Counted from the stretch's first letter, positions 3,118 to 59,601 are shown. The stretch is DNA of 64,000 nucleotides from Bdellovibrio sp. (GCA_020725805.1 DYEF01000065.1:40349-104348); one strand, 5' to 3'. Notes: generated by a model from the sequence alone, not told the origin. Translations and numbers: made by a program.

Positions 3118-4224
3118 ATGAAGACCGGTAATGTAATTTATCCCTTTTTAATCCTTTCCCTTTTCAGCTGCTCAGTTGACTATTCAGTCCTTGAGGAAAG
3201 ATTCTGCAATTCCCAAAATCAATGTATAGAGGGCTATAAGTGTGATCTGGCAACCGGCAAATGCATAAAATCACCGGATTCATCGGATATATCTTTCAGG
3301 GATATCATATCGGATATTGACAGCGGGCTCACTGACCTGTTAACGGAAGATGTTAAGGACGACACCGATGACAGAAGTTATTCTGATACATATCAGGACA
3401 TAATTTCAGATATCAAAGACACAGGATATCCGGATATATCAAATGACAGCGGCCTGTGCGAAACCGGTATATTTACCTGCAGGGATAATGACCTCTACAG
3501 ATGTGATGAAAACGGCCTAATGGTACTCGAAAAGAGCTGTGAAATGGGATGCAAAAATGACCATTGTATTGAATGTCTGCCCAACGAAAAAGTCTGTACA
3601 GATGAAGAGAATCTCAGAATATGCAATCAGGAAGGTCTCTTCGAATCCCAGAAATGCACTTATAAATGCTATAACAATCAATGTGTAATCTGTCTGCCTA
3701 CCGACAAATACTGTAACGGCAAAAAGGCCCTGAAATGTAATCCGATCGGCACAAAATGGGAAGAGAAAGATTGTGAAATCGGGTGTTCGGCCGGAGAATG
3801 TATGATATGTGAACCGGAAGTTACAAAAAAATGTGTCGATAATGATATTTATACCTGTACTGCCTCCGGAATGGATTATTCAAAGACACAAAACTGTTGT
3901 CATGAAAACAACTGCACAGATGGCAATTGCGTAATTACTGCACCAAGAGTAACAGATTACAACCCGAAAGACTGGAAAGTCGGAGGCACTATTTACTGGG
4001 ATATATACGGATGCTTCTTTGTCAGTAATGCATCGAAGGTGATGATAGATTTTGGCGGTTCGTGGAAAGAAATTACCGAATACGACAATTATGAATATTC
4101 AATGAGAACAGAAGAACGTATTCAGATTAAGGTCAAGGTCCTGACCGGCACAGAATTCAATTTTAAGGTTGTAAATCCCGACGGTCAGAGTACTCAGCAA
4201 TATCCTATAAAAAAACACTATTAA
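3118..4224 (+). CDS. secreted Cys-rich repeat lipoprotein, function unknown
   Basis: Internal ATG at 3118 gives MKTGNVIYPFLILSLFSCS, a lipobox-type signal. An acidic D-I-S-D tract follows, then four tandem ~35-aa modules sharing the spacing C-x4-6-C-x3-G-x6-8-C-x2-G-C-x4-C-x2-C. The C-terminal ~100 aa has no Cys. Confidence 0.6.
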   Translation: MKTGNVIYPFLILSLFSCSVDYSVLEERFCNSQNQCIEGYKCDLATGKCIKSPDSSDISFRDIISDIDSGLTDLLTEDVKDDTDDRSYSDTYQDIISDIKDTGYPDISNDSGLCETGIFTCRDNDLYRCDENGLMVLEKSCEMGCKNDHCIECLPNEKVCTDEENLRICNQEGLFESQKCTYKCYNNQCVICLPTDKYCNGKKALKCNPIGTKWEEKDCEIGCSAGECMICEPEVTKKCVDNDIYTCTASGMDYSKTQNCCHENNCTDGNCVITAPRVTDYNPKDWKVGGTIYWDIYGCFFVSNASKVMIDFGGSWKEITEYDNYEYSMRTEERIQIKVKVLTGTEFNFKVVNPDGQSTQQYPIKKHY

Positions 4225-10212: not shown

Positions 10213-12483
10213 CTATTTGCAAAACGGATTGGACCCTATTTCGAGAGGATAGCTTTTGGCCTCCTTTATAAATTCATCTATCTGGGAACAACTATATGGA
10301 TTCAGAACCAATCCTCCGCTCTCTTTTCCCGACAGAGAACTTCTCAGAAAAGCAGCAGCCTGATACTGCGCCGATTCCCTGACCCCTTCGGTGAAACTCT
10401 TGAGGTAAAATATATGCTCCGCGGGGTCAAACTGATAATATGCCGCCGTTTGCATCTCCGAATGATAGGAACCCCGGTGCGGCGTCTGAACCTGAGGCAC
10501 ACCTTCAATAACCCTCAGTGCATCGACCTGCTCGAGTTTCATAAAGTTTCCGAGCATTTCGGTTCCGTTATGGGGGACCACCTTGTCATTCTTGGCCGCC
10601 TGTATTAGGACATTCATATTAACTCCGCCTTCGGTGAAGTATCTCTTCGTAAAATTCAGTACCTCAATCTCGTCTACAAGTGTCTGAATTGAGATAATGA
10701 ACGGGAGATACATATCCTTAAGTTCCCAGATTTCGCCGTTTTCAGAGAGGTCCAGAGAAAGTAGTTTATAGAAGGCCGCTGCGGGCACATTGAATACCGA
10801 TGCTCTGAAATCATTTATGAGACTGACAATCGAAATACCGAGAAAAGAACCGAGTGATTGTGAAGTGAACAAGGAATTACCGGCATCAAAATCCTGAATA
10901 CCGTCTCCTGATTCTTCACTGATTACAACGCCTTTTTCATCTGCAACGGAGGGAATAATATCTGTTTTGAGACCCTTCATCATTCGGTAAAATGCAATCG
11001 TATCAATCGCAGACTGCCTGAGCCAGTTTACCGTAGTAATCATATCGTTTACCTTTATAAAATCCAGTGACTGGGTATCGCAGTATAATCTCCCGTCTTC
11101 ACATCTCGGTTTACCCGAGCGAATACCGTGACCGATAATATCAATACCTCCGATTGCAAAGCCAAAGGACGAGAAAGTCCCGGCAAGTGCCATTGAAGTC
11201 TCCTTACACACCTCGAATGCGTGCTGAAATAGGACAAAAGGTGCCGGAGAGAGAATCCCTTTTTCCGTATCCTTTACCGGCAGTATAAGGATAAACTGAA
11301 TTCTGTTGTATTTGAGCGGCAGATATCTTTTTTTGGAAGAATCATAATTGAGCCTGTTCTTTTCATTGAGATAATAAGGCGAATCATAAAATCCGATGAT
11401 TATTGAATCCACGTTTCTGAAATCATAATCATAAAACTCGTCTATACTCTTGATATCCTCTGCACATGGGAGATATTCCTTCATCTTTTCGGTAAGTTTT
11501 CCTCCCTTGTCTATAGGTTTGAAGATGTCTGTAATCTCGACATTAAAATCAGACAGGCCGTCGATCTGCGATTTGATATCACTCATAATACCTACATTCT
11601 GATGAGTTCTGAATTTCGAAAACATAATAATATCCCTGCGGCTGATACCTGTTTTGTTTTCCAGCGCATCGAAAACAGGCTCAAGCAGTTTTCTGTATGG
11701 TTCGAGTTCGGGATAGCGGGATTCGACAGATTTTTTTAGCTTCAATGCCTCGAAATTTGCCGCAGTAGTAATACATTCCTCGGATTTTATCAGATTTCCC
11801 TCACTGTCTTCTATTCTGGCCCTGAGTCTGTTCGTAATCAGGAAGATATATTCACTCTCCTCTTTCAGGATTTCCCTTACCTGTGCAAAGAGAGTCCCTT
11901 CATTATTTGAATGAATCTCAAGCGGCACAAGGTCTTTCTCTATCTGTTCAATATCATTATTTGTCATCAGTGAATCGAGTGGCAGTAAGAAAACAGCATC
12001 TTCTGAAAACCTCATCTTATTGAATTTTTCCTTTACAAGAGGTGTAATTTTATATTTTCCCTCCTCACTGTTCAGCATAACAAATCTGGCCACAAGAAAA
12101 GGATAAGTCGGGAAACCGGTCAGCTCCTCCATCCCGTTCAGAAAAATATCCTTCGGATAGTTCAGTCTGATACCGGTGGGGCTTGATGAATCAATCTTTG
12201 TATAATAATCGTTCGGGAAGGGAAACATCTCGGCAGGAAGAGAGATTTCGGTTTTATTATAGGGGCCGTAGACTCCGGCTACACCACTTTCACACCTTAC
12301 TATATCTTCAGATACATCAGATGATACATCCGAAACCGCATCCGAAACGACATCTGAACCGGTATCTGAGATAATATCCGCGGACAAATCAGAAATATCG
12401 TCTGTAATATTCCCACCGTTTTCTGACGAGCAACCAGAGAGAATAACAAAAGGGAAAAGCAGAAAAATAAAAAGGGAACGCAT
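10213..12483 (-). CDS. large lipoprotein, function unknown
   Basis: Second ATG (12483) gives MRSLFIFLLFPFVILSGCSS with the RBS GGAGGA. An acidic DISDLSADIISDTGSDVVSDAVSDVSSDVSEDI tract follows the lipobox Cys. About 700 aa show no motif I recognise. Confidence 0.6.
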   Translation of the reverse strand: MRSLFIFLLFPFVILSGCSSENGGNITDDISDLSADIISDTGSDVVSDAVSDVSSDVSEDIVRCESGVAGVYGPYNKTEISLPAEMFPFPNDYYTKIDSSSPTGIRLNYPKDIFLNGMEELTGFPTYPFLVARFVMLNSEEGKYKITPLVKEKFNKMRFSEDAVFLLPLDSLMTNNDIEQIEKDLVPLEIHSNNEGTLFAQVREILKEESEYIFLITNRLRARIEDSEGNLIKSEECITTAANFEALKLKKSVESRYPELEPYRKLLEPVFDALENKTGISRRDIIMFSKFRTHQNVGIMSDIKSQIDGLSDFNVEITDIFKPIDKGGKLTEKMKEYLPCAEDIKSIDEFYDYDFRNVDSIIIGFYDSPYYLNEKNRLNYDSSKKRYLPLKYNRIQFILILPVKDTEKGILSPAPFVLFQHAFEVCKETSMALAGTFSSFGFAIGGIDIIGHGIRSGKPRCEDGRLYCDTQSLDFIKVNDMITTVNWLRQSAIDTIAFYRMMKGLKTDIIPSVADEKGVVISEESGDGIQDFDAGNSLFTSQSLGSFLGISIVSLINDFRASVFNVPAAAFYKLLSLDLSENGEIWELKDMYLPFIISIQTLVDEIEVLNFTKRYFTEGGVNMNVLIQAAKNDKVVPHNGTEMLGNFMKLEQVDALRVIEGVPQVQTPHRGSYHSEMQTAAYYQFDPAEHIFYLKSFTEGVRESAQYQAAAFLRSSLSGKESGGLVLNPYSCSQIDEFIKEAKSYPLEIGSNPFCK

Positions 12484-12547
12484 ATAATCCTCCCGTAAAT
12501 CTGACATATTCTATCATTCTAATTAATTCAAAAAAAGAAAATTTTAC

Positions 12548-13192
12548 CTAAAAATCATCTTTGGCTTTAGGTCTGTTTTCGATATCTTCTACCTTCTCTT
12601 CTACAAGTTTTCTTGTGTTTTCGAAGTGTTTGAGCATTTCCCTGCTGATAAAGACAACCCCTACCTTATCATCACATACTACAGCCATATTATAGTAGTT
12701 CTGATTCGATGATTTCATCTTTATGGTCATTTTGGAACATCTGTTTTCGATGACCTTTGTATCAAACGGAATATTCTTTTCAAGTTTACCCATAAATCCC
12801 TTGAAATACTTCAACATATCATTCTGACAGGACTTATCCATAAAAGCAATAAAACCCACATTTATCACAGACTGCTCTTCCTTATTATAGCACAATGCCT
12901 TATCTTTAGTCAGGGCGATACTCTCAATCTCTACACCTTCGCAGTTTTTATAATCATCCGAATCAGCAGTAGTATTGACTACATCGACTTTGAGTTTGTC
13001 AAATACGAGGTCAACCGTGTGTACATATGTTTTGTTTTCAATTGAACATTTCCGGGAAATATTAAAGGCCTGCGTACCTTTCAGGTCCTCTGTCAGATAT
13101 TTATACACAAGCCCTACACCCTCCTCGAACTGATATGCAGGGTCCTTCACCTCGGAAAAAATAAGAAGATATAATATCAGCAGCTTTGTCAT
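12548..13192 (-). CDS. secreted hypothetical protein
   Basis: 214 aa with an N-terminal signal-like segment MTKLLILYLLIFS and several Cys. It starts 3 nt after the stop of the upstream gene. Confidence 0.5.
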   Translation of the reverse strand: MTKLLILYLLIFSEVKDPAYQFEEGVGLVYKYLTEDLKGTQAFNISRKCSIENKTYVHTVDLVFDKLKVDVVNTTADSDDYKNCEGVEIESIALTKDKALCYNKEEQSVINVGFIAFMDKSCQNDMLKYFKGFMGKLEKNIPFDTKVIENRCSKMTIKMKSSNQNYYNMAVVCDDKVGVVFISREMLKHFENTRKLVEEKVEDIENRPKAKDDF

Positions 13193-16566: not shown

Positions 16567-17202
16567 CTACTTGAACATATCCTTTGGCAACGGAGAGACC
16601 TCTGCATCATCCGGTATCTTAAAACTGAAAAAGGAGTCCTTCAGTCCCGTATCAAATTCCAGATTCCTGAAATGAAAGACATTCCTGTTACCGATTTTGT
16701 CAGTAATCTCTATCTTCTCAACGTTGTACGTCTTTTTCCTCAGATGAATGACAAGACGGGCAATCTGGGCAGATTCCTCCCGGGGGACAAGAAGTAATCT
16801 GAAAAATTCAGCCTCCTCGTCGGCCTTTTCGACATTGAATTCTCTCTCTATACTGCCTTCACCATAGAGAAAGAGAAGAACAAGTTTTATCTGCGAAGAC
16901 TTAAAATCATCATCCACATAAACTATGCCGTCATCCTTGAGATATACCCAGAGATTATTCCCCTTTATTACGAAATCCTTCTGCTTGGGAGTCTTGTAAT
17001 TCCATCTGAACATACCACTCTTTTTATAGTACAGAACACCGGTCGATTCCATCAGGAGGGTACCATTCGAACCATAATACGACTGAATGAATTCCGCCTT
17101 GAAATCCTTTATTTTATCATAACGGCTCTGAAGCAGACTTACGATATCGGGATTCTTATCGTACAGAAACAACACAGCAAAAGCCAGAAAGATTCTCATC
17201 AT
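16567..17202 (-). CDS. LolA-like outer-membrane lipoprotein carrier protein
   Basis: 211 aa with a signal peptide and a LolA-like pattern (RYDKIKDFKAEFIQSYY...GVLYYKKSGMFRWNY). It is adjacent to a Lol-type ABC transporter. Confidence 0.65.
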   Translation of the reverse strand: MMRIFLAFAVLFLYDKNPDIVSLLQSRYDKIKDFKAEFIQSYYGSNGTLLMESTGVLYYKKSGMFRWNYKTPKQKDFVIKGNNLWVYLKDDGIVYVDDDFKSSQIKLVLLFLYGEGSIEREFNVEKADEEAEFFRLLLVPREESAQIARLVIHLRKKTYNVEKIEITDKIGNRNVFHFRNLEFDTGLKDSFFSFKIPDDAEVSPLPKDMFK

Positions 17203-17915
17203 TTTTTCTCTCCTGCCTTCTCGAATTTATATGATACCCCGTCTTTCAGGATTATCCTGAAATAGCTATAATCCAATACTTTCAGATTGCTCTCCTTTTC
17301 CTTCATATAAGTGACCGAGTCAGGTTTACCGAATATTATTATTACCTCATTCTCGCCAAGACCTGTTGCAAAACTCTTGTTGAAAACGGCCTCACGCGCC
17401 TCAGCACTCAGACCCTTAAGATAACTGTCGGCACTATTCTGTGAAAAAATCTCATAGAAGAGGTTGTAGAATTCATCGGGATTATCCACATCCGGTCTTA
17501 TAACCGCAATACAATTTTTATAACCCGATAGTTTATCAACCTTAAGATAAACCCATGGATAGAACCTTGGCGTCAGAAGAGGCCTGTTTGCAGGGGGAAA
17601 TTCTACCCTTTCAATCATTACTTCCGTATTAAAAGGTATAATACCCTTTTCGGTGCCGGGCAGAATGGGTTTTCCGTCAATACCTTCCAGATACACCGTT
17701 TCACTGAATCTTCGGGTCGAGAGCAGGCAGGTCTCCGAATTGCCGTAAAAATCACCGTAATAGAAGGAATATTTTACAAAAAAACGTTTTTCCCTGAGGC
17801 TTTCATTTATATTCTTCTGATTCTCCTCGCTCATTCTGATATTTTTCTGGCAGGTTGCACCATAAAACATAAAGACCAGAAGCATTGTTGCAGATAAATA
17901 ATATTTCATAAACAA
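17199..17915 (-). CDS. secreted hypothetical protein (possible BamE/SmpA-OmlA-like C-terminus)
   Basis: 238 aa with a signal peptide. It overlaps both the lolA-like gene and the permease gene by 4 nt. The C-terminal IIIFGKPDSVTY...YSYFRIILKDG weakly resembles BamE. Confidence 0.45.
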   Translation of the reverse strand: MFMKYYLSATMLLVFMFYGATCQKNIRMSEENQKNINESLREKRFFVKYSFYYGDFYGNSETCLLSTRRFSETVYLEGIDGKPILPGTEKGIIPFNTEVMIERVEFPPANRPLLTPRFYPWVYLKVDKLSGYKNCIAVIRPDVDNPDEFYNLFYEIFSQNSADSYLKGLSAEAREAVFNKSFATGLGENEVIIIFGKPDSVTYMKEKESNLKVLDYSYFRIILKDGVSYKFEKAGEKK

Positions 17916-17921
17916 CTCCCT

Positions 17922-19196
17922 CTACATCGTTATCGCCTTTGCCGGGTCTATCCTTGATGCCCTTATCGACGGGAGAAGAGCACCGATTGCACAGAAGAGA
18001 ACAGAAAAGGCTATTGCCACAAGAAAGATATAAAGATTCGGCTCAAAAAATGTATCCGGTTTATAGGGAAAATCCGGAATTCTGCTCTTTGCAAAGTAAT
18101 CCGTCAGCCTGATAAAGAGATACCCTGCAAATACCCCCGTAAGGCCGTTTATCAGTCCCGCAACGGATGCCTCGAAGAATATCATATATCTTATGTTCCC
18201 CTTTGTAGCCCCTACAGCCCTCAATATACCTATCTCACGCCTCCTTTCATATACAAGGAGAGCAAATGTATTGGAGATATTGATTGCCGAAAGTGCCACA
18301 ATAAGAATCGAGAGCATCCCGAGGAAGAGTGTTGCTATGCTTATAACACCTCCGATTGTCTTCCTCGTCTTGTCTATCTCGAGACCCATTGCAGTTATCT
18401 CCGAAGTAATTTCAGGCACCATCTGTGAACCCGAGGCAAGTACATACAGTTTCTTGTACTTGTTTATCTCGCCTGTCCCGTCGATATCCTTTTTGAATTT
18501 TCTTACATATTCAATGGGTATCGTAATCCCGAGCAGAATTGCCTTGTCCGAGAATCCTACCAGCTGGCACTCATACTCCTTTACCTTTGATGAATCCTTT
18601 GTACCGGCAAGATAACTCTTACCTACCACAAGTTTGAATCTGAAGCCTATAATGGCATCCGGAGTAAGACGCGGAAGTTTCATTGCCTGAGCGATATTGG
18701 AATTATAGAGTTCGAGCAGATGTTTTGAGACTATAACCGGTATGGGGCCATCCTCATTGTACTCGAACCTGAAATCCTTTCTGATATCATCTTTAACGAT
18801 TTCGGTGTCTATACCGGTGGCGGCAAGGTCGGTCACTATTCTTCTCGAATAGAACTCCCCTCTTGCCTGAATTGGAATATCAAGAACAACCTCCTTATAC
18901 ACGCCCTTTACGCCATTGATCGAGGAGATTGCCTCTGCCGTTGAATCCTCTATATTGGAAGACGATATGCCACCGAACGAAAAGATACCTATAGTTGAAC
19001 TCTTGGGTGTAACCTCGATTATGTTTACAGGCAGCTGGGCCAGTATCTTGCCGAATACAACCGACTTGATTCCGTTTCCAAGTGAGACAAAGAAGACAAA
19101 AGATGTAATTCCGAAGATTATTCCGACAGATGAGAGAAGAACTGCCTTCCTGTTTCTTATGAGATTTTTTACTGCAAGAGCCGAAATTCCATTCAT
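17922..19196 (-). CDS. FtsX-like ABC transporter permease (LolC/E / MacB-type)
   Basis: 424 aa with an N-terminal TM helix, a large periplasmic domain and three C-terminal TM helices, the FtsX/MacB topology. It starts 2 nt after the ATPase gene. Confidence 0.75.
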   Translation of the reverse strand: MNGISALAVKNLIRNRKAVLLSSVGIIFGITSFVFFVSLGNGIKSVVFGKILAQLPVNIIEVTPKSSTIGIFSFGGISSSNIEDSTAEAISSINGVKGVYKEVVLDIPIQARGEFYSRRIVTDLAATGIDTEIVKDDIRKDFRFEYNEDGPIPVIVSKHLLELYNSNIAQAMKLPRLTPDAIIGFRFKLVVGKSYLAGTKDSSKVKEYECQLVGFSDKAILLGITIPIEYVRKFKKDIDGTGEINKYKKLYVLASGSQMVPEITSEITAMGLEIDKTRKTIGGVISIATLFLGMLSILIVALSAINISNTFALLVYERRREIGILRAVGATKGNIRYMIFFEASVAGLINGLTGVFAGYLFIRLTDYFAKSRIPDFPYKPDTFFEPNLYIFLVAIAFSVLFCAIGALLPSIRASRIDPAKAITM

Positions 19197-19197
19197 A

Positions 19198-19878
19198 TCA
19201 TACCCTCACGAGCCTTCGTTCCCTTATGGCATAAATTTCATCTGCAATTTTCGTAATTCTCTCCTCGTGTGTCACCATCAGAAATGTTACATTCATCTCC
19301 TTTTTTATGGACATAAAAAGTTCAAGTATCGCTCCTGCAGTAATATCGTCCAGATCGCCTGTAGGCTCGTCGCAGAGGAGGACATCAGGTTTCATAAGAA
19401 GCGCACGGGCTATCGCCACACGTTGTTTCTCCCCGCCTGAGAGAGTAGGAGGATACTGATTCATCCTGTGTGTGAGCTGAACCCGTTCGAAGAGATAATC
19501 CACCCTCTTCTCAATATCCTTAATCTCCTCATGGTAAAAATATGACGGCAGGGATACATTCTCACGACAGTTAAGGTGGTCGAGCAGATTAAAATGCTGA
19601 AAAATAAAACCTATCTTCTCATTTCTGAATCTGCTGAGTTCCTTATCGGAGAGATTCTTGAGTCTTACACCTCCCACGACAGCCTCGCCTTCATACGAAC
19701 TGTCGAGTCCACCGATTATATTGAGCAATGTCGATTTACCTGAACCTGACGGACCGATTATTGCTACGATACTGCCTCTTTCAATACTGAGACTTACTCC
19801 TTCAATAATTGACTTTCTTACACCGTCAAAGAGAAAGGATTTTCCGACATCTTTAAGTTCTATCAGAGGCATAATCAC
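19198..19878 (-). CDS. ABC transporter ATP-binding protein (LolD/MacB-type)
   Basis: Walker A GPSGSGKST, signature LSGGEKQRVAIARAL, Walker B LLCDEPTGDLD. 226 aa. Confidence 0.85.
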   Translation of the reverse strand: MIMPLIELKDVGKSFLFDGVRKSIIEGVSLSIERGSIVAIIGPSGSGKSTLLNIIGGLDSSYEGEAVVGGVRLKNLSDKELSRFRNEKIGFIFQHFNLLDHLNCRENVSLPSYFYHEEIKDIEKRVDYLFERVQLTHRMNQYPPTLSGGEKQRVAIARALLMKPDVLLCDEPTGDLDDITAGAILELFMSIKKEMNVTFLMVTHEERITKIADEIYAIRERRLVRV

Positions 19879-21575
19879 TTATTCTTGACGTTGATTCCTA
19901 TATCGAGAGAGAGACCGTCGCTCTCCGGAATAACATAAATAAACATATTATCGAGTCTACCCAGAAGTTCCCTTACAAGCATAAAAGAGAATTTATATAT
20001 TCCGGTCGAAGCAACAGAATCCAGACTCTTTTCATCGATACCATCAAGAATCTTCTTTAAGGGAGAAAATGAGACATACAGAATCTGGGAAGACGGGTTA
20101 TTTACAACAGAAAAGATATCCTGCGGAATCTTATACGAAGGCTTTTTGTTCTTATCTGCGGGCTTCCGGATGATATTCTCCGGTTTGTCTCCGGTATAAA
20201 ATGCGTAGAAATTACCTTCATCTGTATACCAGTATGAATTATATGCTGCACCAAAACGGGACGATGTAAGACTGATATCCATCACTTTAAGTCCCTCTAC
20301 CTGCTGTCCCTTCTCTTTCATACTGCCCGAAAACCTCTGGAGCAGTTCCTCCGAAGTCTTTGTATCTGTAAGACTCATAGAATAAAAGACATTGAAAAGC
20401 TTATTGAATGCCTCGCCCTTGAAACCACTTTCAATAGCCCTGTTTATATCAGCCTGACCTCCGGCGGCTACCGCATAAACGAGTGTCCCCTTTATCAGAG
20501 GGAGAATATCCTTTTCGACGTCTACCTCCATATACTTCAGCATAGGACCAAACATCTTTTTGTTTATAATCATCATCTGATACGGGTCTTCTTCCTTCAT
20601 AAGGCTGTACAGGGCTGAGAGATTAAGACTTACCTTTGCAAGCAAAAGCGGGTCTTCAGGTACAATATAGAGCAGTCTTTCAATCTCGTCTCCGGACGAC
20701 TTTACAAAATATCTGTTAACATTCTCCATCGATTTACTCGATAACCCTGTAAAGCTGTACAGACTGATTCCTTTGGCTGATATATCGAATGAAAGAAGCA
20801 TTCCGTTGAAATTCTCCTTTACCGACGCAATCATCTGCTTCATCTCGCGGTTGAGCATAAAGCCCGGAGTCTCGATATTCCTGCCGCTGTTAATGAAGAA
20901 ATAGGCCTGCCCGCTTTTTACCCTCTTTTTCAGACCTGAAAAGAGAGTACTCTTTGAGAGTGAATTTAATTCCTTTGTATCAACAATCTTTCTTATTGCA
21001 GCCTCAGCCTTATCGGGGATTCCGTAAATCACAAATCCCTTATAGAAGGCGTACATCAGAACCGGCTTCTCTCCTTTGGGTCCCTGTCTTATTGCCGTTA
21101 TTATTCTTGCATCCATATATGATTTGGTTTTGAATATCTCTGTCTTCTCCTTCTCCCTCGACAGGCGGTTTAATGTATTCTCTGCCTTTGAACGGTCGGA
21201 ATATGGCATAATGAGCAGATTTACATTCTGCTGTCTGCCCTCCACACTGACTGCTACGGAAATGACGGCAACCGAACCGTCAGGGTCAAAACCCGCCTCT
21301 GTTATACTCTTTTTGTCGAGAAGATTTATGCCGAGTTTCTGCGATGCCAGATCAATCTCCTTCTTCAATGCCTCGAAGGCAATCCCGTTTTCAAAAAGCC
21401 TGAAAAATTGCATAATACCACCCATCATCGAACTGACGGACGGAATCAGAAGTACATTCTGGGTATCCTGAGGTATTACGGCAGTTATCTCGGTCTTCTT
21501 CTTCTCGCAGCCGGAACAGGAGAATAAAAAAACCATTACGAAAATCAAAATCAGTCCCGAATATCTTTTATTCAT
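19875..21575 (-). CDS. lipoprotein, function unknown
   Basis: The internal Met gives MNKRYSGLILIFVMVFLFSCSGC (lipobox); the track ORF starts 12 codons upstream. It overlaps the ATPase gene by 4 nt. Confidence 0.55.
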   Translation of the reverse strand: MNKRYSGLILIFVMVFLFSCSGCEKKKTEITAVIPQDTQNVLLIPSVSSMMGGIMQFFRLFENGIAFEALKKEIDLASQKLGINLLDKKSITEAGFDPDGSVAVISVAVSVEGRQQNVNLLIMPYSDRSKAENTLNRLSREKEKTEIFKTKSYMDARIITAIRQGPKGEKPVLMYAFYKGFVIYGIPDKAEAAIRKIVDTKELNSLSKSTLFSGLKKRVKSGQAYFFINSGRNIETPGFMLNREMKQMIASVKENFNGMLLSFDISAKGISLYSFTGLSSKSMENVNRYFVKSSGDEIERLLYIVPEDPLLLAKVSLNLSALYSLMKEEDPYQMMIINKKMFGPMLKYMEVDVEKDILPLIKGTLVYAVAAGGQADINRAIESGFKGEAFNKLFNVFYSMSLTDTKTSEELLQRFSGSMKEKGQQVEGLKVMDISLTSSRFGAAYNSYWYTDEGNFYAFYTGDKPENIIRKPADKNKKPSYKIPQDIFSVVNNPSSQILYVSFSPLKKILDGIDEKSLDSVASTGIYKFSFMLVRELLGRLDNMFIYVIPESDGLSLDIGINVKNK

Positions 21576-28062: not shown

Positions 28063-28779
28063 ATGTACAATTACAGAGAGAATCTTCAGATAATAGGAGG
28101 CAGATTCACCGGGGGTGTAAAATACCTCATTATCATCACTGCGGCTATCTATGTTGTCCAGTTAATTTCTAAATATTTTGACCTCTCGAGCCTGATTATT
28201 CTCATATTTGGTCTGACGCCTGCTCTTCTCATTCAGAATCTGTATATTCATCAGATTTTTACGTATTTGTTCCTCCACTCACCCGCCGACCCGACGCATC
28301 TTCTCTTTAATATGCTCGGACTCTGGATGTTCGGCTCACCGCTCGAAGAGAGATGGGGGACAAGGATATTTCTCAGGTTCTATTTTATATGCGGAATCGT
28401 CGGAGGTTTATTCGTCCTTCTGAGCGGGCTTATCTTTTCTTCGGCCTATAATATCCCGACAATCGGACAATCAGGTGCCGTCTTCGGACTGATAGGTGCA
28501 TTCTGTATTATTTACTCCGAGAGCAGGATTCTCTTCTATTTTATAATCCCAATCAAGGCAAAACAGATGCTCTGGATAATAATATTCATTTCGGTACTCT
28601 ATGCCCTCGCAGGTTCTCCCTACTCTTTTCCGGCCCACATTGGCGGTCTTCTTTGCGGAATATTAATAATAAAAAAACTTTACATACCGTCTGTTATGAT
28701 ATCTACTCTCAAGGAGTTCATCAAAGGCCTGAGACGTAAAAGGCTCAGAGTGATAGAGAAAGACAGGTTTGTTAATTGA
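28063..28779 (+). CDS. rhomboid family intramembrane serine protease
   Basis: Multi-TM protein with the catalytic GQSGAVFGLIGA (GxSG) and the downstream AHIGGLLCG His-containing helix. It starts 3 nt after the PilZ gene stop. Confidence 0.8.
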   Translation: MYNYRENLQIIGGRFTGGVKYLIIITAAIYVVQLISKYFDLSSLIILIFGLTPALLIQNLYIHQIFTYLFLHSPADPTHLLFNMLGLWMFGSPLEERWGTRIFLRFYFICGIVGGLFVLLSGLIFSSAYNIPTIGQSGAVFGLIGAFCIIYSESRILFYFIIPIKAKQMLWIIIFISVLYALAGSPYSFPAHIGGLLCGILIIKKLYIPSVMISTLKEFIKGLRRKRLRVIEKDRFVN

Positions 28780-33158: not shown

Positions 33159-35534
33159 TTATAACATGTTTACAGGGTCAACATCAATACTGACCCTTAC
33201 ATTATGATGCTTTTTATATACAACAGGAATCAGATTTTTTAAAATTTTTCTTGCATTTACCATCTCTGTCGTCTTTATCATAAGCTGATATCTGTACTCG
33301 TTTTTTACCTTTTTCACAGGAGAGGGGACGGGACCTAAGACTTCGGACCTTTTGAGATTCAGAAGAGAATTTCTGAAAAAATCAAGTACCTCCTTACATC
33401 CGGACTCGTTATGTGAACGTGCCCTTATCAGAATAATCTTCGAGAAGGGCGGATAGAAGAGATTCTTTCTCCTCATAAGTTCGATTTCCAGATACTGATC
33501 CGGATTGCCGTCTTTTACCGCAATTATAGCCGGCTCGAACGGATTGAAGGTCTGAATAATGACTTCGCCCTTCTCTTCTCCGCGGCCGGACCTCCCCGAG
33601 ACCTGCATCAGAAGCTGCATAAGCCTTTCCTGAACCCTGAAATCAGGTATTGTAAATGCCGTATCGGCAAGAATGACACCTACAAGTGTTACATCGGGGA
33701 AGTGATGTCCCTTTGCAACCATCTGGGTTCCTATAAGGATATTGGCATCGCCTCTTACGAATCTCGATATGGTACTTTCGAGATCATAGAGATTGGCAAC
33801 CGAGTCCCTGTCGAGCCTGACAGTAACTGCACCGGGGATAATCTTTTTAACAATCTCTTCAATCTGCTCGGTTCCGAACCCAAGATTTTTTACTGATACA
33901 GAACCACAGCCCGGGCAGATATTTCTGACCTTTTCCGAATATCCGCAATAGTGACAGAGCAGAACCTCCTGTCTTTTATGATATACCAGATTGACATCAC
34001 AATCCGGACACCTGAAGATATAACCGCACCTTGAACAGATAAGGACTGTATTGAAACCTCTCCTGTTCAGCATCAGAATTGCCTTACGGTTACTACGGAC
34101 GGTATTCAGTAATGCCTCATATAGTCTCTCGCTGATAAAGAACGGAAGTCCCTCGACATCCTCCTCTTTCTTCTCACGGCTGGCAAGACTCACAATCTCG
34201 ACATCCGGCATAGGTTTTTTATTTGCCCTGACCGTAAGTCTGGAGTGCCCGAATCTTCCGGTCTTTATGTTATAGATACTCTGCACAGACGGTGTTGCAC
34301 TTCCGAGTATTACAATGCATCCTTCTGTCTGACCCCGTTTTATGGCTAAATCCCTGCCGTTGTAACGCGGGGATTCCTCCTGTTTGTATGCACTGTCGTG
34401 CTCCTCATCAACCACTATCAATCCTATATCTGACAAAGGCGCAAAGACCGCTGACCTCGCACCCACAACCACCTTTACCTCATTATTCCTGATTCTCAGA
34501 TACTCCCTTATTCTCTCCTTCTCCTGAAGGCCAGAATGCAAAACAGCCACATCACAACCAAGCGTTGCACGGATTCTGAAAATAGATTGTGGTGTAAGGC
34601 CTATCTCAGGCACGAGGAAGAGAACGGTTTTCCTCTCTTTCAGCACCTTTTCTGCAATTCTCAGATATACCTCGGTCTTCCCGCTTCCGGTTACACCGTA
34701 AATATAATGAACACCGAATCCTTCGTCTCTCATTTTATCTATATTTTCGATCGTTCTCTTCTGTTCGTCCGTCAGTTCTGTTACAGAAGAATCCCTTATT
34801 GTATATGCTTCCGGTGACGACTCAGAGCTCTGAATTCTTACAAGCCCCGTTTTGTAGAGATACCTGAGAATCCTTCTGTCCCTCAGAATGGTCAGAACAT
34901 CATAAAGCGGCATTCTTCCTCTTATGCTCAGTTCGTGAAGGACTGTCCCGACAGACGGGTATTTCTCTTCAATCCTCTTCAGTTCGTCCTTAGGCAATGA
35001 ATCTCCGGTCTCTGAGAGAACGACAAGATTCTTACCGGATTCACCGGCTCCCGGGACATCGAGAAACGCCTCTTTTGAGTTCAGATAACCGAAGATATCC
35101 GAAAGACTGATATTATGTTTTTTTCTGAGTGATTCGTAAGATGACAACCTTATGCTTTGGCTCCCTGAAATATTTTTTTCTGAATTGAAGACAAGTCTGT
35201 AATTCGACAGGTTAAGTAACCCCGATGGGATTGCAGAGAAGAGCATATTTCCCGGTGGCTCGATATAATAATCTGAAGCCCAGAGGAGAAGTTCGAACAT
35301 ATTCCTGCTAAAAACAGGATTGATGGGAAAAATGTCAATAATGGATTTCAGTTTTTCGTTCGGCAGACCTGATGTGTTGTTATTGCCGAGTCTCTTTATT
35401 ATACCGGTCTGAACGCTGTTCTTGAGAGGGACGATTACGGCAAAACCCTCTTTCACAACAGAGGATAAACTCTCAGGTACCCTGTATGTAAATGTCTCGA
35501 ACAACGAATTCTTTAATATTATCTCGGCAAACAT
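33159..35534 (-). CDS. priA: primosomal protein N-prime (PriA helicase)
   Basis: Superfamily-2 helicase motifs (GVTGSGKTEVY, DEEHD) and the PriA zinc-binding insertion with paired CxxC motifs (CSRCGYIFRCPDC...CHYCGYSE...CPGCG). 791 aa, upstream of def-fmt. Confidence 0.9.
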   Translation of the reverse strand: MFAEIILKNSLFETFTYRVPESLSSVVKEGFAVIVPLKNSVQTGIIKRLGNNNTSGLPNEKLKSIIDIFPINPVFSRNMFELLLWASDYYIEPPGNMLFSAIPSGLLNLSNYRLVFNSEKNISGSQSIRLSSYESLRKKHNISLSDIFGYLNSKEAFLDVPGAGESGKNLVVLSETGDSLPKDELKRIEEKYPSVGTVLHELSIRGRMPLYDVLTILRDRRILRYLYKTGLVRIQSSESSPEAYTIRDSSVTELTDEQKRTIENIDKMRDEGFGVHYIYGVTGSGKTEVYLRIAEKVLKERKTVLFLVPEIGLTPQSIFRIRATLGCDVAVLHSGLQEKERIREYLRIRNNEVKVVVGARSAVFAPLSDIGLIVVDEEHDSAYKQEESPRYNGRDLAIKRGQTEGCIVILGSATPSVQSIYNIKTGRFGHSRLTVRANKKPMPDVEIVSLASREKKEEDVEGLPFFISERLYEALLNTVRSNRKAILMLNRRGFNTVLICSRCGYIFRCPDCDVNLVYHKRQEVLLCHYCGYSEKVRNICPGCGSVSVKNLGFGTEQIEEIVKKIIPGAVTVRLDRDSVANLYDLESTISRFVRGDANILIGTQMVAKGHHFPDVTLVGVILADTAFTIPDFRVQERLMQLLMQVSGRSGRGEEKGEVIIQTFNPFEPAIIAVKDGNPDQYLEIELMRRKNLFYPPFSKIILIRARSHNESGCKEVLDFFRNSLLNLKRSEVLGPVPSPVKKVKNEYRYQLMIKTTEMVNARKILKNLIPVVYKKHHNVRVSIDVDPVNML

Positions 35535-38054: not shown

Positions 38055-39440
38055 CTAAACCGTTTTGAATATCTTTCCCGGATTCAGGAGATTGTAGGGG
38101 TCCATAATATTCTTTATCTCTTTCATAATTCTAACCGCATCCCTGTCGAGTTCTGACTCTGAAAAGTCTTTTTTAAGAAAACCGATTCCGTGCTCTCCCG
38201 AAATCGAACCGCCGTATCTGAGAACAATCTCTGTTACCTGCCTCATCACCTTATCAAAATTCTTCTCCATATCTTCCCTTGTACCGAACATAAAATTCAC
38301 ATGCAGATTCGAGTCACCAGCGTGACCGAATATTGCAATTCTGAATGAATTTTCTTCTGCAAATCTTCGCAGTTCAGAGACGGCATTTCTGAGGCTCCCG
38401 AGAGGTACTGATACATCATCGGCAATCCTGTATTCACCAAGCGCATTTAAAGACGGAGAGACATCCCTTCTTATATCCCATATATTCTCTATCTCATCGC
38501 TCTTGTTGGAGAATATCACATCCGTAATATTATGTTCTGCAAGTATATCCTTTACTTTTTCAGACTCTGCAAGGACTGATTCGGCCGTGCCGTCGAGTTC
38601 AACAAAGAGCAACGAATGGATGCTACTCTCTTTCAGAACATAGAATCCGGTAATCCGTTTATTGACCAGAATGCATTCCCTGTCCATAAATTCCAGTGAG
38701 CAGGGAAGAACTCCGCTTTTATATATTTCGAGTAAAAGATTCAGCCAGCCATATTCATCCCGAAACGGGATTACGAACAGGGCCCTCGAAAGCGGTCTGG
38801 GAATAAGTCTTACGGTTGCCTCTGTTATAATTGCCAAAGTCCCCTCGGAACCTGCAATGAGTCTCATCAGGTCATATCCTACAACGGATTTTACCACCTT
38901 GCCTCCGAGCCTCAGGACCCTGCCGTCAATGGTAACAACCCTCATTCCGAGCAGGTAATTCTTTGTAACCCCGTACTTTACAGCGTGAATTCCTCCGGCA
39001 TTATGGGAGATATTACCGCCAATCGTCGAGACCTTCACAGACGAAGGGTCAGGCGGATAATATAGTCCGTATTTTGCCGCTTCACTGTTAAGCTCCTGAG
39101 TAATAACCCCGGGCTCGGCCACTGCAATCATATTAATGCGGTCAATCTCTTTTATTCTGTTCATCTTCGTAAAACTGACCACAAATCCGCCCTTTACAGG
39201 GACCGGCCCACCCGAACGGGAGGTCCCGGAGCCCCGGGCTACAACAGGAATCCTGAATTCAGTAGCTATCTTTGCAATCTCAGTTACATCATTCTCGCTA
39301 TATGGGAATATTACTGCATCCGGCCTGAAAAAGATATTTGTGGAGTCATAGGAATAAAGGGAGAGATAATGCTCTTCCGTAAAAACCTTCTCCCTGCCAA
39401 TCCGTGATATGAGCTTTTCTATAGCCTTATTTATCTCCAT
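38055..39440 (-). CDS. FAD-linked oxidase (GlcD / D-lactate dehydrogenase family)
   Basis: FAD-binding PCMH-type N-domain (VVARGSGTSRSGG) and C-terminal EHGIGFLKKDF. 461 aa. It overlaps the M23 peptidase gene by 14 nt. Confidence 0.8.
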   Translation of the reverse strand: MEINKAIEKLISRIGREKVFTEEHYLSLYSYDSTNIFFRPDAVIFPYSENDVTEIAKIATEFRIPVVARGSGTSRSGGPVPVKGGFVVSFTKMNRIKEIDRINMIAVAEPGVITQELNSEAAKYGLYYPPDPSSVKVSTIGGNISHNAGGIHAVKYGVTKNYLLGMRVVTIDGRVLRLGGKVVKSVVGYDLMRLIAGSEGTLAIITEATVRLIPRPLSRALFVIPFRDEYGWLNLLLEIYKSGVLPCSLEFMDRECILVNKRITGFYVLKESSIHSLLFVELDGTAESVLAESEKVKDILAEHNITDVIFSNKSDEIENIWDIRRDVSPSLNALGEYRIADDVSVPLGSLRNAVSELRRFAEENSFRIAIFGHAGDSNLHVNFMFGTREDMEKNFDKVMRQVTEIVLRYGGSISGEHGIGFLKKDFSESELDRDAVRIMKEIKNIMDPYNLLNPGKIFKTV

Positions 39441-40722
39441 CCTTCTCTTCCTGTACCCCGGCAGATATTACCTTATTTTCAGTAAGAGTAAAATACTTTC
39501 TGTATTCCTCCACATACTTCTGAAACTCTGCCATATATTTGCGGTCGAGAGGTTCAGAAGGCGGTGCGACCTTCTTCAGCGGATTTACGATATTACCGTT
39601 TTGCCTCATCTCAAAATGAAGATGGGGTCCGGTCGAGACACCTGTCGAACCCACGTATCCGATGAGTCTCCCCTGCTCAACCGATATTCCCTGTCTGATA
39701 CCGGCACCGAATCTTGAAAGATGCCCGTATCTCGTCTCGAGACCGCCTTTATGCTTCAATATTATGAGATTGCCGTATCCACCCATAACTCCTGCAAAAG
39801 AGACAACCCCGTCTGCCACTGCCCACACCTGTGTGCCTGACGGAGCCGCATAATCGACACCGTGATGCATCTTAATTTTTTTATATACAGGGTGAAATCT
39901 CTTGCCAAAACCTGACGAGATTTTTCCATATTTCAGAGGGGATTTCAGAAATGCCCTTCTGTTTGCAAGGCCTTTAGAATTGTAATACCCGCCCTTTTTG
40001 TCTGCATAAAAATAGAATGCCTCTTTATTACCCGTGGTCTTCCCATTATACATTGCAGCCAGAATTTTCCCGTATTGCACAAAATAATTCCCGCTGTAAT
40101 ACTTCTCGACCACTATCTTGAATTCATCATCTGGCATAACCTCAGTATAAAAATCGATATCCCAGGCAAATACCTCATTGGCAAGAATGACGGATAGCTG
40201 CGGGTCCTCCCCTATCCTCTCCATTGTCTCATAGAGTGAACCCTGAACTTTACCCGTTACAAACTCGACTCTCTTTTCGACCTCATACTCTTCTTTGTAG
40301 GAGACGAATTTCCCGCTCTCGTCCCGTTCCACAATATAACTCTCGATTGGTGAAGATGAGTATGAAAAAGATTCCAGTTCACCGGAGTCCTTGCTCAGCG
40401 AGATGACAAATGTATCCTGAGGTTTGCATTTTCTGAAGTCCAGTACTCCCTTCAGATTCATAATTATCTGTTCGGCCACCTTATACTCTATGCCTGTCTT
40501 CAGAAGGGCAACAGATAACGTCTCTCCCTCCTCCAGTGTGCCGTAATATTTCAGGGTATTGCTCTCCGGGCCTATGGGTTCTGTATAAACTTCCTTCCTT
40601 ATTGTATCACATTCTGCAAGTGTCCGCGGTCTGTTATATTCCGCCTTAATCGGACCGGGTTTGTTACCACACCCCGTATAAAAGACCAAAATTATTATCA
40701 GGATTGCATAGAAATACCGCAT
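39427..40722 (-). CDS. M23 family metallopeptidase lipoprotein
   Basis: Lipobox LVFYTGCG and the M23 motifs HHGVDYAAP...GHLHFE. It starts 5 nt after the atpC stop. Confidence 0.8.
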   Translation of the reverse strand: MRYFYAILIIILVFYTGCGNKPGPIKAEYNRPRTLAECDTIRKEVYTEPIGPESNTLKYYGTLEEGETLSVALLKTGIEYKVAEQIIMNLKGVLDFRKCKPQDTFVISLSKDSGELESFSYSSSPIESYIVERDESGKFVSYKEEYEVEKRVEFVTGKVQGSLYETMERIGEDPQLSVILANEVFAWDIDFYTEVMPDDEFKIVVEKYYSGNYFVQYGKILAAMYNGKTTGNKEAFYFYADKKGGYYNSKGLANRRAFLKSPLKYGKISSGFGKRFHPVYKKIKMHHGVDYAAPSGTQVWAVADGVVSFAGVMGGYGNLIILKHKGGLETRYGHLSRFGAGIRQGISVEQGRLIGYVGSTGVSTGPHLHFEMRQNGNIVNPLKKVAPPSEPLDRKYMAEFQKYVEEYRKYFTLTENKVISAGVQEEKDGDK

Positions 40723-58935: not shown

Positions 58936-59601
58936 CTATGCCCTGCTTTTCTGCTCGGAAAACCATCTGAATAATCTCTCCTGATATGCCTCCACGTAAA
59001 AGGCGTAGTAACAGAATGTTGCCAGCATCAGTCCGGATACGACATCGAGGAAATAGTGCTGTTTTGTGAAGAGAGTCGACAGAGATATCAGAATTCCCAG
59101 AGTTATAGCCCAGATACCGTTTAGTTTTGTCTTGTGATAGATGGCAAATGCCGAGACCATCGATACCGCAACGTGCAGCGAAGGAAAACAGTTCGTCGGA
59201 AGGTCGATATAATAAATAAAATTGAGAAGGATTTCGCTTGCTGTATTCATCGGGACTTCCTGTCTTACCGACATCACCGGGAAGAGCAGAAAAACCGGAT
59301 AGGCAACGAGGTCGCACATAACAATGGAAAAACCGACCCTCTTGACCTCTTCAACCGTATCGAGTATCAGAACAAGAAATATAGGGAATATAAACAGCAT
59401 TTCATATATCCACGACCATTCAGGTATCAGGGGTATTACTCTGTCAATCGGTAGAGAGACATCGTAGAGTTTGGCAGTGTTTACCTTTGAATTTACATAC
59501 ATATAGCCAAACCCGTGAAATGCATAGACAAAAGCAAAAATCAGGTATTTTTTGAGATAATATTCCCTTGGATATGAGTTTACAGGTTTGATGAAACTCA
59601 T
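58936..59601 (-). CDS. PAP2-superfamily membrane phosphatase/phosphotransferase-like protein
   Basis: Six hydrophobic segments, with FPSLHVAVS and KQHYFLDVVSG resembling PAP2 motifs C2 (PSGH) and C3 (SR-x5-H-x3-D). Confidence 0.55.
   Translation of the reverse strand: MSFIKPVNSYPREYYLKKYLIFAFVYAFHGFGYMYVNSKVNTAKLYDVSLPIDRVIPLIPEWSWIYEMLFIFPIFLVLILDTVEEVKRVGFSIVMCDLVAYPVFLLFPVMSVRQEVPMNTASEILLNFIYYIDLPTNCFPSLHVAVSMVSAFAIYHKTKLNGIWAITLGILISLSTLFTKQHYFLDVVSGLMLATFCYYAFYVEAYQERLFRWFSEQKSRA

Follow-up and report, generated by a model that had tools for sequence, protein, structure and literature searches.

Acidic, predicted disordered tracts next to anchor cysteines of exported proteins in an uncultured Myxococcota clade: candidate tethers of surface or released exoenzymes

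Exported proteins with acidic tracts

The 64,000-nucleotide stretch of DNA analysed here (called the window throughout; GCA_020725805.1 DYEF01000065.1:40349-104348, labelled Bdellovibrio sp.) contains, at positions 10213 to 12483 on the minus strand, a gene for a predicted lipoprotein of 756 amino acids (aa) whose lipobox Cys is followed by an acidic tract. Tracts of this kind, rich in Asp, Ser, Thr, Ile and Val, 35-129 aa long and with less than 5% Lys+Arg, are found in five exported proteins of the window. An earlier note on this DNA had named these five open reading frames (ORFs) as genes for exported proteins, and all five are indeed present at the coordinates it gave, each with an N-terminal signal peptide. 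The genes, anchors and tracts are listed here with the evidence for each in brackets; proteins are referred to by the lowest coordinate of their genes.

10213-12483, minus strand: flagged gene, 756-aa predicted lipoprotein, putative distant relative of VolA/Pla-1-type phospholipases (ORF, translation, profile matches)
12430-12483, minus strand: signal peptide and lipobox MRSLFIFLLFPFVILSGC of the 10213 protein, Cys at residue 18 (conforms to a PS51257-like rule)
12295-12429, minus strand: 45-aa acidic tract of the 10213 protein, LSGC then SSENGGNITDDISDLSADIISDTGSDVVSDAVSDVSSDVSEDIVR then C (sequence)
12292-12294, minus strand: invariant Cys64 (KCES) closing the 10213 tract (ortholog alignment)
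49231-51168, plus strand: gene for a protein with lamin-tail (LTD) and Big_2 domains (ORF with signal peptide)
49231-49293, plus strand: signal peptide of the LTD/Big_2 protein, with the relaxed lipobox FAAC (Cys kept in all orthologs)
49294-49680, plus strand: acidic tract of ~129 aa in the LTD/Big_2 protein, C then SDESSED... (sequence, AlphaFold2)
49681-51168, plus strand: globular part of the 49231 protein, with lamin-tail, Big_2 and C-terminal beta domains (PF00932, PF02368; confident AlphaFold2 beta structure)
51598-54120, minus strand: gene for a predicted lipoprotein with a beta-propeller and a phosphoesterase of the PLC/acid-phosphatase family (PF10282, PF21783, PF04185, NCBIfam beta-propeller repeats)
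53953-54057, minus strand: 35-aa acidic tract of the 51598 protein, VYGC then SDNEGTTVSDTGTDISTEDITITEDTGSNDTDVKK then C, beginning SDNEGTT (sequence; lipobox rule satisfied)
53950-53952, minus strand: conserved Cys57 closing the 51598 tract, KKCDF here and VECDF in the ortholog alignment (ortholog comparison)
3118-4224, plus strand: Cys-rich predicted lipoprotein with an LFSC lipobox (ORF with signal peptide)
3172-3270, plus strand: conserved 33-aa Cys-rich module of the 3118 protein, between lipobox and tract (ortholog at locus L003)
3271-3456, plus strand: 62-aa acidic tract of the 3118 protein, an interdomain linker to further Cys-rich repeats (sequence)
56323-58803, minus strand: M36/M4-like metalloprotease with an ordinary signal peptide (ORF, domain search)
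56353-56574, minus strand: 74-aa acidic tract of the metalloprotease, aa 744-817, directly ahead of its C-terminal Cys tag (sequence)
56326-56352, minus strand: C-terminal tag SGCSCSFIE-COOH of the metalloprotease (Cys signature like that of MYXO-CTERM; no transmembrane helix, no Arg tail)

The tract directly follows the lipobox Cys in three proteins (10213, 49231 and 51598). The earlier note had counted a fourth, the 3118 protein, in which the Cys-rich module intervenes; in the L003 ortholog this module is conserved while the tract has diverged. It had correctly placed the metalloprotease tract at the C-terminus. The tracts of the 10213 and 51598 proteins both end exactly at a Cys that is kept in all orthologs. 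A sixth, unrelated tract-bearing lipoprotein is encoded at locus L004, where LSAC is followed by SENTEKEDITDASSTYDVIIDSG.

The exact 756-aa product of the flagged gene is on record (P0001) with the start at 12483; a longer start at 12507 has no record and was set aside. Its tract contains 27% D+E, 29% S+T and 2% K+R.

Lipoboxes were scored with a rule of the PROSITE PS51257 type, which asks for a basic n-region, an uncharged h-region, the pattern [LIVMFWSTAG]2-[LIVMFYSTAGCQ]-[AGS]-C, and a position between residues 15 and 35 for its Cys. The 10213 (VILSGC), 51598 (LVYGC) and 3118 (SLFSC) proteins conform to it, as does the tract-less 19875 protein, and the 49231 protein (YFAAC) deviates solely by Tyr at position -4. 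These results support the view that the tract carriers are exported and mostly lipobox proteins, for which lipid modification is predicted. Lipoboxes of this clade are rich in aromatic residues (YFAAC at 49282-49293, LVYGC at 54058-54069, FYTGC at 40669-40680, and LFSC), and some LTD orthologs (loci L006, L008 and L010) have Tyr at -1 (LFYC), which breaks the usual [GAS] rule, while the Cys is kept together with the S-[DE]-E behind it.

Composition of the tracts and restriction to exported proteins

In a composition scan of 52 non-overlapping ORFs of the window, long tracts were present in 5 of the ~12 exported proteins and in none of the ~40 non-exported proteins (Fisher p = 0.0003). One marginal stretch of 20 aa lies in a non-exported ORF (33159-35534), and counting it gives p = 0.0016. 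The tracts are more than a product of chance.

Pooled, the tracts consist of 22% D, 13% S and 11% T (S+T 25%), 11% I and 7% V (I+V 18%), and 4.6% K+R, and by charge-hydropathy all five lie on the disordered side, not far from the boundary. The earlier note had described them by the motif D-[IV]-[ST]-D, which occurs three times across all five tracts; the actual regularity is [ST]-D-[IV]. Asp is followed most often by I (23), T (16) and V (13) and preceded by S (18) and T (15), and the D-[IV] dipeptide is over-represented relative to within-tract shuffles in each tract (p = 0.001-0.056). Of the 99 gaps between acidic residues, 63 have a spacing of 3-5, where ~32 would be expected. Since one ORF alone had at least two matches to the strict D[IV][ST]D motif, that motif was dropped as the defining feature and replaced by composition and spacing statistics. 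Two other candidates were rejected: a Bacteroidetes O-glycosylation sequon, D-[ST]-[AILVMT], was discarded by eye given the tract order [ST]-D-[IV], and a Pfam search returned no match to thrombospondin-type DxDxDG Ca-binding repeats.

Ortholog comparison and predicted disorder

Scans of genome contigs and of metagenome contigs gave only two and three loci, respectively, which makes the clade a rare one and a large ortholog sample impossible. The family of the 10213 protein has ten members (67-77% identity), and that of the 49231 protein comprises nine full-length orthologs and two sequences from metagenome loci (11 sequences). In the 10213 family, the linker is 34% identical and 7% gapped while the rest of the protein is 73% identical and 0% gapped; in the 49231 family, the corresponding values are 37% and 29% for the linker and 68% and 0% for the rest. 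Linkers are 39-45 aa long in the former and 106-136 aa in the latter, and their composition is near-constant among orthologs (D+E ~30%, S+T 20-27%, K+R 2-5%). Orthologs of the 51598 protein begin, from the Cys, with CSDKEG... (85% identical overall) and CGERVAS... (76%). As judged from these alignments, the tracts keep their composition and approximate length, and not their sequence.

AlphaFold2 modelling of the 49231 protein gave a predicted local distance difference test score (pLDDT) of 25-32 for residues 18-150, with no secondary structure (no DSSP elements at 22-150), whereas residues 151-645 scored mostly 80-93 from the same shallow alignment. In the 10213 protein, residues 19-62 scored 24-26 and had no elements, within a model that is poor as a whole (mean pLDDT 43) and weakly informative. 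The tracts are thus predicted to be intrinsically disordered. Two properties expected of a disordered linker were looked for. The first, more than 22 residues without predicted structure after the Cys, is seen in the 49231 protein (that of 10213 being poorly modelled overall), and the second, conservation of length and disorder and not of sequence, is borne out by the differences in identity and gaps between linker and globular part and by the steady composition.

The regular spacing of the acidic residues could also mean that the tracts are polyanionic binding modules, acting as low-affinity binders of Ca2+, Mg2+ or mineral, or making cation-bridged contacts with lipopolysaccharide or exopolysaccharide, with the alternation of Asp and Ile/Val giving an amphipathic extended strand upon binding. 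The strong preference for S/T before Asp and I/V after it, a hydrophobic content that is unusually high for a disordered region and a mean hydropathy near the order/disorder boundary would all fit such a role. However, no match to a known Ca-binding repeat family was found with Pfam or NCBIfam, neither sequence nor register is conserved among orthologs, AlphaFold2 predicts no structure in the tracts, and the use of P/A/G in place of I/V/S/T by high-GC homologs (see below) argues that the filler is not functionally specific. We consider binding modules an improbable explanation.

Repeats and length variation in tract DNA

The DNA encoding the tracts consists of low-complexity codon runs (GAT, ATT, ATA, ACA, TCA). 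The gat-att/gat-gtt micro-repeats described in the earlier note proved to be very weak: Tandem Repeats Finder (TRF) reported a single array (12326-12358, inside the 10213 tract), of 2.8 copies of a 12-bp unit with 80% match, and a seed-based search added scattered and degenerate direct repeats of 12-24 nt (67-87% identity). Neither search found a long, near-perfect tandem array in tract DNA, which is not made of microsatellites.

Repeat-mediated length variation had been proposed as well. Linker lengths do differ between orthologs: the 10213 linker of the window has a 4-aa insertion relative to its orthologs near the 12-bp repeat, and a clean in-frame indel of 24 nt (KDSNEITD) distinguishes the LTD linker at L008:2371-2394 from those of L010 and L006, in DNAs that are otherwise ~90% identical. 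This indel is bounded by an imperfect direct repeat, ATTAC[TA]GA[CT]. With no true tandem array present, variation in tract length is weakly supported. A stronger version, in which the tracts would be simple-sequence contingency loci, hypermutable and able to switch the length or phase of the protein within populations, can draw on the same two indels and the repeats at their sites. It seems to us very improbable, given that perfect or long arrays are absent (2.8 copies at 80% being the best TRF match) and that all indels seen keep the frame and separate species-level relatives, which is what ordinary slippage would give in DNA of low complexity.

Residues after the lipobox cysteine and taxonomic position

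In Bacteroidota, the lipoprotein export signal (LES) is position-specific, with forms such as CS(D/E)2 with acidic residues at +3/+4, C-X-K-(D/E)2-X, SDDDD and SDDFE (PMC6222051, PMC5080379), and a minimal LES consists of a polar residue and two acidic residues (PMC5080379). The pattern looked for was an acidic pair at +3/+4 (or +4/+5) behind a polar or basic residue. The earlier note had likened the acidic residues after the lipobox Cys to this signal. Among the carriers of the window, a CS(D/E)2 start is found in the 49231 protein only (C-S-D-E). All 11 sequences of its family have S at +2, E at +4 and D, N or E at +3, while the rest of the linker cannot be aligned. The 10213 protein (CSSEN) lacks the acidic pair, and its family members start with CSSGN, CVSRD, CSSNE, CESSD, CKSSE, CISTS or CSLRD; the 51598 protein (CSDNE; distant orthologs CGERV) and the 3118 protein (CSVDY) also miss the pattern, as do most orthologs of these three proteins. 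Because the same type of tract is found between domains and at a C-terminus, the tract is not in itself a post-Cys signal.

Predicted lipoproteins of the window that carry no tract offer a comparison: 19875 (CSGCEKKK), 39427 (CGNKPGP; orthologs start with CKGSPES and CRGQESK) and possibly 17199. Two of them belong to the following features.

39427-40722, minus strand: M23 peptidase lipoprotein, YTGC then GNKPGP, tract-less comparator (lipobox scan)
16567-21575, minus strand: Lol-like cluster of LolA, an FtsX/MacB-type permease, an ABC ATPase and a tract-less DUF3352 lipoprotein, CSGCEKKK (PF03548, PF02687/PF12704, PF00005, PF11832)

It may be asked whether a C-S-D/E-D/E start is a position-specific signal that, as in Bacteroidota, flips lipoproteins to the surface, with the long tract being secondary. 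The C-S-D-E of the 49231 protein fits both CS(D/E)2 (PMC6222051) and the minimal LES (PMC5080379), and C-S-[DNE]-E is kept in all 11 orthologs despite the unalignable linker. Similar starts are seen in the 51598 protein and its closest ortholog (CSDNE/CSDKE) and in the sixth family (CSEN), and tract-less lipoproteins begin with neutral or basic residues (CGNKP, CKGSP, CRGQE, CSGCEKKK). On the other hand, the host lies outside Bacteroidota and there is no known LES machinery to look for. No acidic pair is conserved at +3/+4 among members of the 10213 family, the distant 51598 orthologs (CGERV) and the 3118 protein (CSVDY) depart from the pattern, and tracts of this type also lie away from a lipobox (internal in 3118, C-terminal in 56323). 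We regard this explanation as unlikely for the tracts. A short LES-like signal is possible in the 49231 family, although it cannot explain the tracts as a class.

The Bacteroidetes-like appearance had also been taken as a hint of affinity with the Fibrobacteres-Chlorobi-Bacteroidetes (FCB) group, which the relatives of the encoded proteins do not support. The closest named relatives of AtpD (93-97% identity) come from metagenome-assembled genomes (MAGs) labelled 'Myxococcota bacterium' and 'Deltaproteobacteria bacterium', and the next tier, after a gap, comprises Myxococcota, Bdellovibrionota and Thermodesulfobacteriota (78-83%). No protein labelled Bacteroidota is among the named AtpD matches in the top 120. 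Only two GTDB representatives were found to carry the 10213 ortholog, both labelled Myxococcota/Deltaproteobacteria, and most scored homologs of the protease have MYXO-CTERM-like tails (see below). On this protein evidence, the organism is assigned to an uncultured, low-GC lineage of Myxococcota and not to the FCB group. Acidic residues after a lipobox are unsafe as a taxonomic marker of Bacteroidota.

A short cysteine tag at the metalloprotease C-terminus

The metalloprotease ends in ...SKTDESKDESGCSCSFIE followed by the stop codon. Its ending (...ESGCSCSFIE) has the Cys signature of MYXO-CTERM (TIGR03901), and its homologs carry GC[SG]C. The full MYXO-CTERM architecture is a Cys, a hydrophobic helix and an Arg cluster (PMC11980579). 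The helix is missing from the window protein, where the stop falls six residues after the first Cys, as is an Arg-rich tail, and an NCBIfam search with this protein gave no match. A frameshift or truncation of a full MYXO-CTERM was considered and rejected, since no hydrophobic segment follows the tag in any reading frame and the stop of orthologs P0142 and P0166 (endings CSCSVLE and CSCSVIE) has the same position. A multi-Ig protein of 1212 aa, unrelated to the protease and from another species of the clade (L002:12303-15941, plus strand), ends in ...TKSKDESTSGCGCSIVE and stop (SGCGCSIVE), and more distant protease homologs end in CSCSTLGL, CSCSSIGL, CGCSIVS and similar sequences.

In a search of the full library, the protease had 1890 relatives at E <= 0.001, and 146 of the best 150 were scored. 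The Cys, hydrophobic helix and Arg cluster of MYXO-CTERM are all present in 123 of the 146, while 10 of the 146, among them the window protease and its near orthologs, end within 5-9 residues of the Cys. Most scored homologs have an acidic spacer of low complexity ahead of the Cys, and its filler shifts from I/V/S/T to P/A/G with a proxy for proteome GC (P+A+G from 0.15 to 0.46, Spearman 0.49). The D-I-S-D flavour of the tracts may be a low-GC version of acidic linkers that are common in Myxococcota. With the N-terminal tracts and the protease tract at a C-terminal Cys, the tract adjoins an anchoring Cys at either terminus.

By its sequence, the tag resembles a shortened, CaaX-like form of MYXO-CTERM, and it is a more unusual feature than the tracts. 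No CPBP or myxosortase-like gene lies beside the protease gene, which has a PAP2 phosphatase gene upstream (58936-59601) and HEAT-repeat, TM2-domain and DUF2752 genes downstream. Elsewhere in the window, a gene for a rhomboid-family intramembrane protease (28063-28779, plus strand; PF01694, E = 2e-27) is followed by genes for LiaF-like membrane proteins.

These endings allow a bolder idea, that the clade uses a surface-display code of two mirror-image lipid anchors sharing one acidic spacer: an N-terminal anchor with lipobox Cys and C-S-(D/E)2, and a C-terminal, previously undescribed tag without a transmembrane helix, KDES-x-SGC[SG]CS[FIV][ILV]E-COOH. We think such a code doubtful at best. 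If it were real, acidic anchor-proximal surface sorting would have arisen outside Bacteroidota and a CaaX-like short variant of MYXO-CTERM would exist.

The phospholipase-like protein and genomic context

Profile searches matched the 10213 protein to TIGR03502 (67 bits, E = 1e-18; residues 415-557 to profile 447-572), short of the curated cutoff of 383.9 bits, and weakly to PF12262 Lipase_bact_N (residues 190-294), in an order collinear with the TIGR03502 match. The protein is accordingly classed, by profile similarity, as a distant relative of VolA/Pla-1 and not a member of the family; VolA itself is a proven outer-surface lipoprotein (PMC3656444). In the family of the 10213 protein, a TSQSLGS motif is invariant and eight Cys are invariant or nearly so, as expected of an exported enzyme, and these Cys suggest disulfides. 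A profile search with the family against PDB sequences gave no match. Directly upstream and co-oriented lies a Pfam-negative ORF of 214 aa (12548-13192, minus strand), a pairing that is kept in L001 and L005. Its product is possibly a dedicated partner of the phospholipase-like protein, for example a foldase or immunity protein.

The lipoprotein transport genes of the window are Lol-like, comprising LolA and a LolCDE-like ABC system (FtsX-type permease and ABC ATPase). Their cluster also holds an ORF of 238 aa with a lipobox-like GATC, and adjacent start and stop codons overlap. Between the atp operon and the LTD lipoprotein gene lies a gene for a PAS-PAS-HisKA-HATPase-REC hybrid kinase (46787-49171, plus strand). 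Its region has a GC content of 0.34-0.37 against ~0.43 for the window, and in L004-L007 the LTD gene directly follows the atp operon, so the kinase gene looks like a lineage-specific insertion. In L005, a module of RE_MjaI and an N6/N4 methyltransferase, together with an HSDR_N/RAMA gene, is inserted between the LTD gene and yjbQ (L005:12345-15928). The ortholog of the phospholipase gene pair lies just beyond this restriction-modification insertion, in a gene order that differs from that of the window.

Discussion

We propose that the tracts are probably anchor-proximal, disordered acidic tethers on exported proteins of hydrolase or adhesin type, likely surface-displayed or released exoenzymes of a Myxococcota clade. 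This reading builds on the observed location, composition, predicted disorder, restriction to exported proteins and evolutionary behaviour of the tracts, and the Lol-like genes of the window also speak for it. Built from loose [ST]-D-[IV]-x quasi-repeats, each tract would form an intrinsically disordered, polyanionic spacer between the globular part of a protein and a Cys that is, or is predicted to be, lipid-modified. The tract lies behind the lipobox Cys of three lipoproteins, connects two modules of a fourth, and precedes the C-terminal, MYXO-CTERM-like Cys of the protease. It may keep the enzyme domain off the membrane as a flexible, charge-repelled tether. By analogy with E. coli linkers, with lipoproteins of the A. 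baumannii type II secretion system (T2SS) and with the disordered region of TraA, it could also help extraction and sorting and permit surface display or release. The I/V/S/T filler would be the low-GC counterpart of P/A/G-rich acidic linkers in high-GC Myxococcota. The domains of the carriers are exoenzyme-like (VolA/Pla-1-like phospholipase, beta-propeller with phosphoesterase, LTD with Big_2, M36/M4-like protease) and fit extracellular or surface work, which makes a link to surface display plausible.

Several points weigh against this proposal. We infer surface exposure of the carriers from domain content only, and the sample, taken from ~230 kb of a single clade, is small, with six tract-bearing lipoprotein families and three or four that have no tract. 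Disorder of the 10213 tract is called mainly from composition, its AlphaFold2 model being poor. About 30% I/V/L/A and a regular 3-5 acidic spacing are atypical for a purely entropic spacer and could reflect a specific binding function, and in the 49231 family, where C-S-[DNE]-E is strictly kept, the spacer seems to be combined with a short position-specific signal.

A spacer beside N- and C-terminal anchor Cys offers a simple sequence marker for candidate surface or released exoenzymes in MAGs of uncultured Myxococcota, and the C-S-D-E start and the GC[SG]CS..E tag are concrete, mutable candidates for sorting motifs.

Acidic or unstructured stalks that lie next to an anchor and project a functional domain are known from the Ser-Asp stalks of staphylococcal Sdr/Clf proteins and from the tethers of Borrelia surface lipoproteins. 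The tracts resemble them in being acidic or unstructured and anchor-proximal. They differ in phylum, anchor and repeat chemistry: both stalk types belong to phyla other than that of the window host, and the staphylococcal ones have a sortase/LPXTG anchor and a strict SD dipeptide. In Myxococcus xanthus, Lys at +2 leads to inner-membrane retention and Ala at +7 to matrix export.

The tracts share with the LES (PMC5080379, PMC6222051) the position of acidic residues right after the lipidated Cys of hydrolytic lipoproteins, most closely in the C-S-D/E-E of the 49231 family. Unlike the LES, which is 4-5 residues long, position-critical and found in Bacteroidota, they are 35-129 aa long and occur in Myxococcota, and the acidic pair at +3/+4 is missing from three of the four lipoproteins of the window.

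Surface lipoproteins of the T2SS, such as the InvL class (PMC12802150) and Klebsiella pullulanase (cited in PMC11980579), also have a Gly/Ser/Asn/Asp-rich segment after the Cys on exoenzymes and adhesins. In A. baumannii, InvL-class lipoproteins have GGG or ND(N/D) at P2'-P4' and more than four G/S or N/D in P2'-P8' (PMC12802150). The corresponding segments of 10213 (SSENGGN; 4 G/S, 2 N), 49231 (SDESSED) and 51598 (SDNEGTT) are enriched in these residue classes, the exact motifs being absent, and the tracts are far longer than this motif of ~8 residues. The T2SS of Myxococcota also carries MYXO-CTERM proteins to the surface (PMC11980579); no T2SS gene (GspD/E/F, GspN) is among the annotated ORFs of the window, which was the only part of the genome searched.

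TraA and other myxosortase substrates have a low-complexity, disordered spacer adjoining a C-terminal Cys whose predicted lipidation would anchor them at the surface, and the myxosortase study depicts TraA with an intrinsically disordered region beside its MYXO-CTERM (PMC11980579). The window protease resembles them in this arrangement, but keeps the Cys signature only (GCSCSFIE-COOH), without helix or Arg cluster, and its spacer is rich in D/I/V/S/T and not in P/A/G.

The linkers of RcsF, Pal and NlpD of E. coli are similar in arrangement, being unstructured segments of more than 22 aa that separate the globular domain from the lipidated Cys (El Rayes et al., 10.1101/2021.01.05.425367). About half the lipoproteins of the E. 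coli outer membrane need such a disordered N-terminal linker of more than 22 aa for sorting, and these linkers function by length and disorder, not sequence, with a proposed role in aiding Lol processing and possibly surface access (10.1101/2021.01.05.425367). Unlike them, the tracts contain ~30% D+E, are quasi-periodic and Ile/Val-rich, reach 129 aa and also occur, as known here from sequence, at a C-terminal anchor and between domains. The best-supported view is that the tracts are a new compositional variant, or local flavour, of an already known type of lipoprotein tether and not a sign of Bacteroidetes ancestry.

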